From positions 420,001 to 452,000 of the forward strand of contig AP027131.1 of assembly GCA_027925225.1 (NCBI GenBank): a DNA stretch of 32,000 bases, read 5' to 3'. The notes under the pieces are model-generated. The model made no database searches. It was not told where the DNA came from and saw only the letters and a program-made list of their open reading frames with translations. This DNA is from Candidatus Saccharimonadota bacterium (GTDB taxonomy: Bacteria; Bacillota_I; Bacilli_A; Mycoplasmatales; Hepatoplasmataceae). Positions 2,150 to 3,802 of the stretch are shown piece by piece. The first letter of the stretch is position 1; every line of letters starts with the position of its first letter. The position numbers were made by a program, and so were the translations under genes.

Positions 2150-3802
2150 ATGAACAATACTGATATAGCAAATGAAATTTATCAAAAAGATGCAATCAAG
2201 TTTATGAAAGAACTTGAAAAAGAAAAAATTATTGTTGATGCAATAATTACAGATCCCCCTTATAACATAAGTAGAAAAAATAATTTTAATACAATGGGAA
2301 GACAATCAATTGATTTTGGAAAATGAGATAATAAATTCAATCAAACAAAATGAATAAAAAATGCTTCTAAAATAATTAAATCTGGTGGAACTATTTTAAT
2401 TTTTAATGATTGAAAAAATATGGGTAAAATAGCAAAAGAGCTTGAGAAAAATGATTTTATAGTAAAAGATTTAATAAGATGAATAAAACCAAATCCGATG
2501 CCAAGAAATGTGGAAAGAAGATATGTAATTGATGCAGAATATATTATATGAGCCGTAAAAAAAGGCAAAAATACTTGAACATTTAATAAGGAAAATGATA
2601 AATATTATTTAAAACCAGAGTTTATTCACTCTTCAAAAAGCGGAAGAGATAGATTTCATCCTAATCAAAAACCAGAAAACTTAATTTCTGATTTAATTAA
2701 AATTCATACAAATAAAAAAGAATTAATTTATGATCCATTCAGTGGTTCAGGTGAAATAAGTATTGTTGCAAAAAAAGAAAATAGAAATTTTATTGCTACA
2801 GAACTAGATAAAAATTTTTATGAAAAATCAATAAATAGAAAAGAATTAAGAGAATTTAACAGACCAATTTTTAATTACTTAGGAAATAAATATAGAATAA
2901 TAAATATTCTTATAAATAAATTTAGTGAGCAAAATGATATTAAAGAATTTATAGATGTTTTTACAGGATCAGGGATTGTTTTTTCTTCAATATCAAATGA
3001 TAATTTTAAAAACTTAAAAAAAATAATAGTAAATGATAAAGAAAAAGTAATTATTGATTTATTAAAATACATAAATAAATATAGTGAAAAAACTTTAATA
3101 AATGATTTTAAAAAAACATTATGTGAATCAAATATTATAAAAAATAAAACAATAGATAAAGATGCATATAATCAATTAAAAGAAAAATACAATAAAATTA
3201 TGAAAGAAAAAAATAAGAAAAGAAATAAAGAAGAGAGAGAGAGAGAGAGAGAGAGAGAGAGTCGGCCAGAAAAAATTCTACTTATTCTTATACTTTATGG
3301 CTTTAATCATCAAATTAGATTTAATTCAAAGAATGAATTTAACATTCCTCCAGGAAAATATTTAAATTCAATTTATATTGAAAATAAAATTTTATCTTTT
3401 AAAAAAAATTTAAAAAATAAAAATATTATTTTTAAAAATGATGATTTTGAAAATTTAATAAATAAAATTATTGAAAAAAATGAATCTCTAGAAGGAAAAC
3501 TATTTTATTTTGATCCTCCATATTTGCTCGCAAATAAAACTTATAATAAATGTTGAACTAAAAATAATGAAATAAAACTTATAAATTTATTAGAAAAAAT
3601 TACAGAAAAGAAAGGGAAATGGGTTCTTTCTAATTTTCTTTTTGCCAAAGAAAAAGAAAATAAAATTCTCAAGGAATTTATAAATAAAAATAAATCTAAA
3701 TTAAGCAAAAAAGAATTAAATAATTTAAATTATGCAAATTCAAATTATCAAAAAAAGAAAAAAGCATTAAAGGAAATAGAGATTTTATTATGAAATTGAT
3801 AG
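2150..3802 (+). CDS. Fused two-domain DNA methyltransferase: N-terminal beta-class N6A/N4C MTase domain (~2150-2860) plus C-terminal alpha-class Dam/D12-like N6A MTase domain (~2861-3802)
   Basis: I checked frame 2 codon by codon from ATG 2150 to TAG 3800-3802. It contains only TGA (Trp) codons and no TAA/TAG, so track ORF 3200..3556 is an internal piece. The N-terminal half has DAIITDPPYN (motif IV) followed later by IYDPFSGSGE (motif I). The C-terminal half has NYLGNKYRII, FIDVFTGSGIV (motif I), YGFNHQIRFNSKNEFNIP and FYFDPPYLL (motif IV). Confidence 0.85.
3232..3261 (+). repeat. (AG)15 dinucleotide microsatellite inside the Dam-like half of the methyltransferase; encodes ERERERERERES in the current frame
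   Basis: Direct read: aaagaagagagagagagagagagagagagagagagtcgg, an uninterrupted AG run from 3232 to 3261. Confidence 0.95.

Follow-up and report, generated by a model that had tools for sequence, protein, structure and literature searches.

A long AG repeat in a fused adenine methylase gene of the isopod symbiont Candidatus Hepatoplasma vulgare is probably a contingency switch

A 32-kb stretch of the genome of Candidatus Hepatoplasma vulgare (which we call the window) contains a gene for a fused adenine methyltransferase, or methylase, whose second half is interrupted by 15 perfect copies of the dinucleotide AG. We propose that this tract serves the methylase gene of a Type IIS restriction-modification (RM) system as a hypermutable contingency repeat, and we think that this explanation is probably correct. 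By sequence, the locus falls in the MhoVII family, a group of Type IIS RM systems (CHARACTERISED family). A repeat switch in this family has already been published for Mycoplasma hominis, which lowers the novelty of the one that we describe here. Phase-variable methylases are also well documented among systems of Type I and of Type III, in which the methylase subunit is needed for restriction. For a Type II system that can be switched, the question is how the cell survives the loss of protection if the nuclease acts independently, and the same question applies to MhoVII in M. hominis.

Results

The methylase gene is at positions 2150-3802 of the forward strand of the window and encodes 550 amino acids. 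The perfect (AG)15 tract, at 3232-3261 on the same strand, is in the methylase's reading frame (the ON state) and encodes most of EERERERERES (codons 361-371, at 3230-3262). If one AG unit were lost or two were gained, then translation would stop at a TAA at 3304-3306 and yield a 384-aa product; if one were gained or two were lost, it would stop at a TAA at 3363-3365 and yield a 405-aa product. If three units are gained or lost, the reading frame is preserved. So the gene has what is expected of a phase-variable methyltransferase: an in-frame repeat whose length would allow slippage, and a stop codon in each of the shifted frames.

The tract stands out from the rest of the window. We found no matches to it in 100 dinucleotide-preserving shuffles of the window, even with 3 mismatches allowed, and apart from it the 32 kb contain just two dinucleotide runs of at least 5 units, (AT)9 at 11512 and (AG)5 at 13627. 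Also, all five of the glutamate codons within the tract are GAG, which accounts for just 7% of the glutamate codons across the window (P about 7e-7). Because these codons are rare, we view the tract as a feature of the DNA rather than as a glutamate/arginine peptide that was selected. In an alignment of 10 sequences, the tract falls in the least conserved segment, which varies in length and lies directly 5' of a conserved hydrophobic stretch. Immediately upstream of the tract, at 3178-3238, is lysine-rich and purine-rich sequence with degenerate AAAGA-type repeats.

The tract interrupts the second of two methylase domains. The first domain (M1; residues 29-226, 2234-2827 on the forward strand) is of the beta class (N6_N4, Pfam PF01555, E = 2.6e-37), with a DPPY motif at 2252-2263 and FSGSG at 2738-2752. 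Its closest sequences in PDB are 5hek and 5hfj, the "DpnA" (M1.HpyAVI) of Helicobacter pylori (E = 7e-59). The second domain (M2; residues 243-515, 2876-3694 on the forward strand) is of the alpha class and is Dam-like (D12, PF02086, E = 3.2e-28). It contains FTGSG (motif I) at 2960-2974, FNHQIRFNSKNEFNIPPG at 3302-3355, and the catalytic DPPY at 3512-3523, and it matches T4 Dam (1yfj, E = 3e-17) and DpnM (2dpm) in PDB. NCBIfam searches agree with the Pfam assignments. The tract is in the recognition region of M2, between motif I and FNHQIRFNSKNEFNIPPG/DPPY, so every frameshifted state loses the catalytic DPPY of M2 and leaves M1 unaffected. In the AlphaFold (AF2) model of the methylase, whose mean predicted local distance difference test score (pLDDT) is 86, the tract is modeled as a short helix with low confidence (block pLDDT of 62 at the tract and 80-90 in the flanking blocks).

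Most of these features had been described in the original prediction, which was made from the sequence alone. It placed the tract exactly and the three M2 motifs correctly, and its view that the gene encodes a fused beta-class and Dam-like (D12) N6-adenine methyltransferase agrees with the searches of Pfam, NCBIfam, and PDB. It had also estimated that a shift of one unit would reach a TAA within about 50-130 nt; the stops are 43 and 102 nt past the tract. It was right that the tract is in frame, but it gave the encoded peptide as ERERERERERES, which was a trivial slip.

The window is rich in A and T (G+C content of 22.4%), with TGA serving as a sense codon; under genetic code 4, it reads as a segment of a Mollicute genome. 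The methylase gene is open only under that code. We rejected a gene call with the standard code, which is interrupted at TGA, while code 4 (TGA = Trp) reads through. The protein is 100% identical to HPAVJP_3570 (BDV02468.1) from Ca. Hepatoplasma vulgare, a gut symbiont of the pill bug Armadillidium vulgare whose genome was assembled from shotgun data (PMC10928387). The assembly is based on Oxford Nanopore Technologies (ONT) reads and was polished with Illumina reads (using Medaka and POLCA), and the genome paper does not mention the methylase gene, the repeat, or phase variation (PMC10928387).

The next gene (3790-5553, forward strand; P0140) encodes 587 amino acids and is the probable cognate Type IIS restriction endonuclease. 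This assignment rests on gene order, profile comparisons, and the predicted fold. Its ATG is 13 nt inside the 3' end of the methylase gene (the overlap is 3790-3802), and the order of methylase then endonuclease, with an overlap, is kept in L001, L002, L003, L084, and other loci. In nearly all of the loci that we considered, the methylase stop and the endonuclease start overlap or abut. NCBI names P0140 as "AlwI family," and a homology search found the 587-aa protein only in its source genome. Sequence searches of Pfam, NCBIfam, and PDB with P0140 returned no matches. In particular, it does not match RE_AlwI (Pfam PF09491) even at E <= 1, whereas L029_R and L015_R, which are AlwI-type neighbours of homologous methylases, give E = 1e-40 or better.

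More sensitive comparisons support a distant relationship to the AlwI family. With hhalign, P0140 matches the group of R.MhoVII (96.9%, E = 1.9e-10, 115 columns) and an AlwI-type group of bona fide RE_AlwI proteins (98.2% probability); both matches cover only the C-terminal catalytic domain. The N-terminal two thirds of P0140 and R.MhoVII cannot be aligned, and BLAST links the two proteins through an intermediate, L023. A Foldseek search with the AF2 model of P0140 (pLDDT of 78) ranked Nt.BspD6I, a Type IIS nickase, in the first eight places among PDB structures (E = 4e-8 to 3e-7).

The translation signals for the endonuclease are also of interest. There is no methionine codon in the methylase frame between the AG tract and the endonuclease start. 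And a search for Shine-Dalgarno sequences upstream of 20 endonuclease starts found that they were mostly absent or too distant (for example, at -20 in the window), with a few loci at -10 to -14.

The best-studied relative of this locus is in M. hominis. Its methylase was first described as DCM8/DAM3 and is now known as M12.MhoVII (PMC10305163, 2023; PMC12898733, 2026). On its own, recombinant M1 of MhoVII methylates GATG and M2 methylates CATC; full protection requires both, and R.MhoVII cleaves unmethylated sites (PMC12898733). The MhoVII genes are on one polycistronic mRNA (PMC12898733). Across isolates and cultures, methylation of GATG/CATC varied from 11 to 76% while transcript levels were unchanged (PMC12898733). 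A (TA)n tract in the recognition region of M2 varied from 6 to 12 repeats within one strain, as seen in Sanger-sequenced clones, and most M. hominis strains have OFF alleles (PMC10305163).

There are several similarities to the window. Like M12.MhoVII, the window's methylase is a single polypeptide with an N-terminal N6_N4 domain (beta class, YhdJ-like) and a C-terminal D12 domain (alpha class), with two DPPY motifs and two FxGxG motifs. Its full-length identity to the M. hominis protein of 534 aa is 44-47% (P0127: 44% in the alignment). Full-length matches to the methylase include proteins of M. hominis and M. pirum, and the fused architecture is common in Mollicutes. Both systems are from host-associated Mollicutes, both have an overlapping downstream endonuclease, with catalytic domains that are probably related, and both have a dinucleotide repeat in the recognition region of M2 whose length changes truncate M2 and spare M1. 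There are also differences. The repeat unit is AG here instead of TA, and there are 15 units instead of 6-12. The AG tract lies some 60 alignment columns 3' of the TA tract and immediately 5' of a conserved segment (LLVLxLFGFNQQIRFN). The N-terminal part of the endonuclease, which is presumably the DNA-binding part, cannot be aligned, so the recognition site may differ. And within-strain variation has been reported for M. hominis, while the tract of Ca. H. vulgare is known from one genome.

The published variation of the (TA)n tract can be confirmed independently from protein sequences. A cluster of M. hominis proteins includes full-length alleles of 534 aa as well as N-terminal fragments of 319-341 aa, which end in IYIYI with differing numbers of repeats, and C-terminal fragments of 195-239 aa. 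The M. hominis genome CP169636 has (AT)11 and a split gene.

The closest evidence about the AG tract itself is from a sister Hepatoplasma (L084; Logan contig 2233 from run ERR14127475). This contig has about 80% DNA identity to the window and is syntenic with it, with the same gene order: methylase, endonuclease, GmrSD, PGI, and PtsI. The identities of the encoded proteins are 82% (C-terminal part of the methylase), 70% (endonuclease), 68% (GmrSD), and 82% (PGI). This short-read contig starts inside an (AG)14 tract (positions 1-28) at exactly the site of the window's tract, so the sister species has at least 14 units. The tract continues into the same conserved sequence as in the window, with a difference in the immediate 3' flank (CTACAAAAAATT instead of TCGGCCAGAAAAAATT). 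To judge from the two sequences, a pure tract that is kept at the same site across about 20% DNA divergence, together with the break in the short-read assembly, looks like a repeat that is actively slipping.

We also surveyed repeats in relatives, with one genome scanned per species (25 Mollicute loci, 248 kb). That scan for homologues returned neither Ca. H. vulgare nor further strains of it, and the only match in a scan of metagenomes, with the conserved 3' flank as the query, was an unrelated and unfused D12 methylase (L089). Of the 11 dinucleotide repeats of at least 8 units in the 248 kb, 10 were in or just upstream of the methylase gene, which accounts for 18.5% of the sequence (binomial p = 4e-7). 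If each site is counted once, as an independent origin, then p is about 0.001 by a hand estimate. Across the Mollicutes, we found long repeats at no fewer than six distinct places in the methylase gene. Among about 28 fused homologues from outside the Mollicutes (Clostridia, Bacilli, and Saccharibacteria), none had such a repeat.

The repeats are found from upstream of the start codon to the recognition region of M2. L016 has T15 (3951-3965) about 20 nt upstream of the start, to which the ON and OFF states do not apply. In the 5' coding leader, Ca. Tyloplasma litorale has (AG)15 (ON), and a snake-associated metagenome-assembled genome (MAG), L028, has (AG)20 at the same site (3886-3925; OFF). 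In a loop of M1, Ca. Mycoplasma liparidae has (AG)21 (L012, 4438-4479; ON), and a Ureaplasma MAG (L020) has (GA)23 at the same site (653-698; OFF). L021 has (AG)18 at a second site in M1 (3842-3877), and its gene is disrupted. In M. faucium, the codons for motif I of M2 (FSGGG) include G9 (L014, 4819-4827; ON). In the recognition region of M2, besides the tracts in the window (ON) and in the sister species, there is (TA)n in M. hominis, M. lipophila, and U. canigenitalium, all of which are OFF in the assemblies that we read, and (AT)8 near the TA site in L035, which is a MAG of Mycoplasma sp. The contig of L020 also has a second tract, (GA)26, at its end (1-52).

T. litorale is another symbiont of isopods. 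Its tract (AP027078.1; L001 6072-6101, which is the same as L007 3931-3960) is 72 nt 3' of the start codon, within an N-terminal extension of about 45 aa. We considered whether this tract might be in an untranslated leader and ruled it out, as there is no in-frame start between the tract and the conserved domain. Because there is no alternative start downstream of the tract, slippage in T. litorale would switch the whole enzyme. More broadly, a frameshift at a repeat in the leader or in M1 removes both methylase activities. Endonuclease reading frames are intact in OFF genomes (518 aa in L019, 578 aa in L020, and 570 aa in L028), and for this reason we think that these are reversible states rather than decay.

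Discussion

Our proposed mechanism is as follows. With 15 units, the gene is ON and encodes the full-length, two-headed enzyme. By analogy to M. hominis, where M1 acts on GATG and M2 on CATC, each of the two heads would methylate the adenine in one strand of a short and asymmetric site. Mollicutes are not known to have MutS/MutL mismatch repair. Because of this, we expect that slipped-strand mispairing during replication would add or remove AG units at a high frequency in Ca. H. vulgare. A gain or loss of units other than in multiples of three would leave an intact M1 and a dead stump of M2, so that sites would be methylated on one strand only and the genome would be hemimethylated. The OFF state may also lower the translation of the endonuclease, because the endonuclease starts inside the end of the methylase gene and there is no methionine codon after the tract. 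This would make the switch survivable. Because repeats that abolish methylation (in the leader or in M1) coexist with intact endonucleases, polar silencing seems to be the simplest escape from self-restriction. Finally, leaky suppression of frameshifts at (AG)n has been described for mod1 of M. bovis in E. coli (bioRxiv 10.64898/2026.04.01.715767). Leakiness of this kind could soften the OFF state.

The comparisons with relatives strongly favor the original prediction's reading of the tract as a slipped-strand switch: there is the published (TA)n variation in M. hominis (6-12 repeats; PMC10305163), the tract in the sister species, and repeats across the family. Its placing of a cognate endonuclease downstream is plausible as well, given the overlap with the methylase's stop, the conserved pairing, the profile match to R.MhoVII and to AlwI-type proteins, and the predicted fold like Nt.BspD6I. 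It is true as well that a change of one unit truncates only the second domain. But the idea that switching just half of the enzyme is the design of the family is not supported, as some relatives have repeats that remove both activities.

Several observations weigh against our explanation. The collections contain one genome and one methylase allele of Ca. H. vulgare, and the MAGs were reported to be clonal (PMC10928387). In-frame ON tracts are found in three species (Ca. H. vulgare, T. litorale, and M. liparidae), and a tolerated linker would look alike. The count of 15 could be off by one unit because the sequence is from an ONT assembly that was polished with Illumina reads. The lowered translation of the endonuclease in the OFF state is our inference. 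Also, because the endonucleases align only in the C-terminal catalytic domain, the GATG/CATC specificity of MhoVII cannot be transferred to the window's locus. And the window does not avoid that site: it contains 214 occurrences of GATG/CATC compared to 121 expected from a second-order model (an observed-to-expected ratio, or O/E, of 1.76). This excess is probably driven by codon usage and is uninformative about specificity.

If the tract is a switch, then its selected effect is most likely a form of bet-hedging, in which the restriction barrier and the methylation state are modulated reversibly. It is more economical to suppose that selection can act on any frameshift in the methylase gene, and that the position of the repeat in M2 adds a hemimethylated state as a by-product.

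Alternatively, the tract might form a true phasevarion, in which toggling M2 would alter adenine methylation of one strand across the genome and thereby change the expression of a set of genes, such as the neighboring families of surface proteins. The mechanism would be as in the phasevarions of Type III and Type I systems (PMC5909438, PMC7383803). It would suit a tiny genome with few regulators, and the window does contain a tandem family of seven apparent surface proteins. There is a precedent in H. pylori: hpyAVIBM, which is the second methylase of a related MnlI-like pair, has AG repeats, and its deletion alters transcription (PMC3411764). Nevertheless, we doubt this explanation. The repeat was "not addressed" in the MhoVII study (PMC12898733). 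An intact endonuclease has been kept, which points to defense, while classic phasevarions often have an inactive restriction partner. And the repeats of some relatives abolish all methylation, so half-methylation is not what is conserved.

Another alternative is that the tract reflects the neutral growth and decay of a microsatellite. A tolerant, purine-rich stretch of lysine, glutamate, and arginine codons (AAA/GAA/AGA) might have expanded in the absence of mismatch repair, with frameshifts inactivating a dispensable and selfish RM system. The location of the tract, in the least conserved and length-variable segment and right after purine-rich AAAGA-type repeats, would fit. So would the OFF alleles of most M. 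hominis strains (PMC10305163), the fragmented gene of M. caviae (PMC12898733), and the apparent double disruption in L021. The closest relatives that do not have the tract (P0002 and P0003) manage without it. On the other hand, neutral change would not be expected to keep a pure tract in the same place in two species with about 20% DNA divergence, or to concentrate repeats in the methylase rather than in the flanking sequence (p = 4e-7) with six or more sites of origin. Endonucleases are intact in OFF genomes, and ON and OFF alleles coexist within strains of M. hominis. We consider neutral decay to be quite unlikely.

It is very unlikely that the tract is a stable structural linker, that is, a fixed glutamate-arginine peptide (such as a charged helix in the recognition domain) that was selected and has no polymorphism in length. 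The tract is in frame in the window, in T. litorale, and in M. liparidae, and the AF2 model has a short helix at the tract, although the model's confidence is low there. The exclusive use of the rare codon GAG is incompatible with selection on the peptide, the closest homologues do not have the peptide, and the equivalent tracts in L020 and L028 are out of frame.

The tract is almost certainly not an artefact of assembling or polishing a long-read MAG: dinucleotide runs are error-prone in ONT data, even if polished with Medaka and POLCA, but an independent short-read assembly of the sister species has (AG)14 at its very start, in the corresponding position, and similar tracts are present in homologues from many unrelated projects, so only the exact number of units could be affected.

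Returning to the contingency repeat, how does it compare to other known systems? The Type III mod genes of mycoplasmas are similar in that (AG)n lies inside a methylase reading frame, the shifted frames have TAA stops, and the restriction gene overlaps the 3' end of the methylase gene. Examples include the poly-GA mod genes of M. agalactiae and M. bovis and MmyCI of Mycoplasma mycoides subsp. capri, for which AG12 (OFF) and AG10 (ON) clones were observed (PMC3498834). The difference is that Res needs Mod, so the OFF state of a Type III system is intrinsically safe, whereas here there is an independent Type IIS enzyme and just one of two methylase activities is lost. The window's locus combines N6_N4 and D12 domains with a BspD6I-like nuclease and has no helicase domains, so it is not a Type III system even if it works alike.

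The MnlI-like Type IIS pair of H. pylori (hpyAVIAM/hpyAVIBM) is similar in two ways: the structure nearest to the window's M1 is that of M1.HpyAVI (5hek), and it is the second methylase of a pair for an asymmetric site that has AG repeats (PMC3411764). But hpyAVIBM is a separate C5-cytosine enzyme with 4-5 AG units and with no endonuclease (PMC3411764), while in the window the second methylase is an N6-adenine D12 domain that is fused to the first, has 15 units, and comes with an intact endonuclease. As for the family of AlwI, N.BstNBI, and Nt.BspD6I, the predicted fold of P0140 resembles Nt.BspD6I over its full length and its catalytic domain aligns with AlwI-type proteins (98.2%), but it is below the Pfam threshold for RE_AlwI and has no listed score. 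Similarly, MhoVII-type endonucleases are on a branch apart from AlwI (PMC12898733).

More speculatively, MhoVII-like systems might be an unrecognized class of phase-variable Type II (IIS) RM systems that is spread across host-associated Mollicutes. Repeats would have been gained independently at no fewer than six positions of the methylase gene; the endonuclease would be silenced in the OFF state by the loss of translational coupling, which would make a lethal switch safe; and repeats in M2 would add a third heritable state, which is strand-specific hemimethylation at an asymmetric site. We offer this as a tentative idea, and we would not be surprised if it were wrong.

Whatever the breadth of the class, our survey of the family shows that the repeat strategy is recurrent and is not a quirk of M. 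hominis. There are natural alleles that switch the whole enzyme, its first half, or its second half. The phenomenon now extends to a non-pathogenic symbiont of the arthropod gut, and the AG tract is a ready marker of population heterogeneity in the symbionts of isopods. There is also a caution for annotation: "pseudogenes" that are split at such tracts are probably switch states.

Other features of the window

The gene that follows the endonuclease (5633-7456, forward strand) encodes a GmrSD-type (Type IV) restriction protein, with Pfam domains GmrSD_N and GmrSD_C. It belongs to the same defense island as the methylase-endonuclease pair and not to the switch. GmrSD adjoins the pair, on either side, in four genomes (besides the window, L001 at 4241-5911, L028 at 1980-3779, and L084 at 2433-4262), which suggests a recurrent small defense island. 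Among common 4-mers, CATG is the most strongly depleted in the window (O/E of 0.52) and GATC is mildly depleted (O/E of 0.73). A Sau3AI-like enzyme is listed elsewhere in the genome of Ca. H. vulgare (PMC10928387).

Just upstream of the methylase, and overlapping its start (2138-2152), ATGATGATTTAAAAATG resembles ATGATGATG, with which the leader that carries the repeat begins in T. litorale and L028. In the window, three codons are followed by a TAA, and the sequence may be left over from a version of the methylase gene that had the leader.

Further downstream, seven tandem paralogous genes of about 520-605 aa (11881-24716) have near-identical signal-like sequences at their N termini (MIRLKNLYFLFSFFIIFTFFWG...), and a fragment of a paralogue without the N terminus is at 14536-15555. 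This looks like a family of variable surface proteins. On the 5' side of the first full copy, there is a short and degenerate remnant of a paralogue (11440-11750) that contains a perfect (AT)9 at 11512-11529, which is read as IYIYIY. The remnant could be another site of slippage or a product of decay. Finally, before the methylase gene, at 138-2084, is a gene for a repetitive protein of 648 aa with a C-terminal hydrophobic segment and a lysine-rich tail. It contains a 360-bp tandem duplication at 739-1422 (1.9 copies that are 97% identical).

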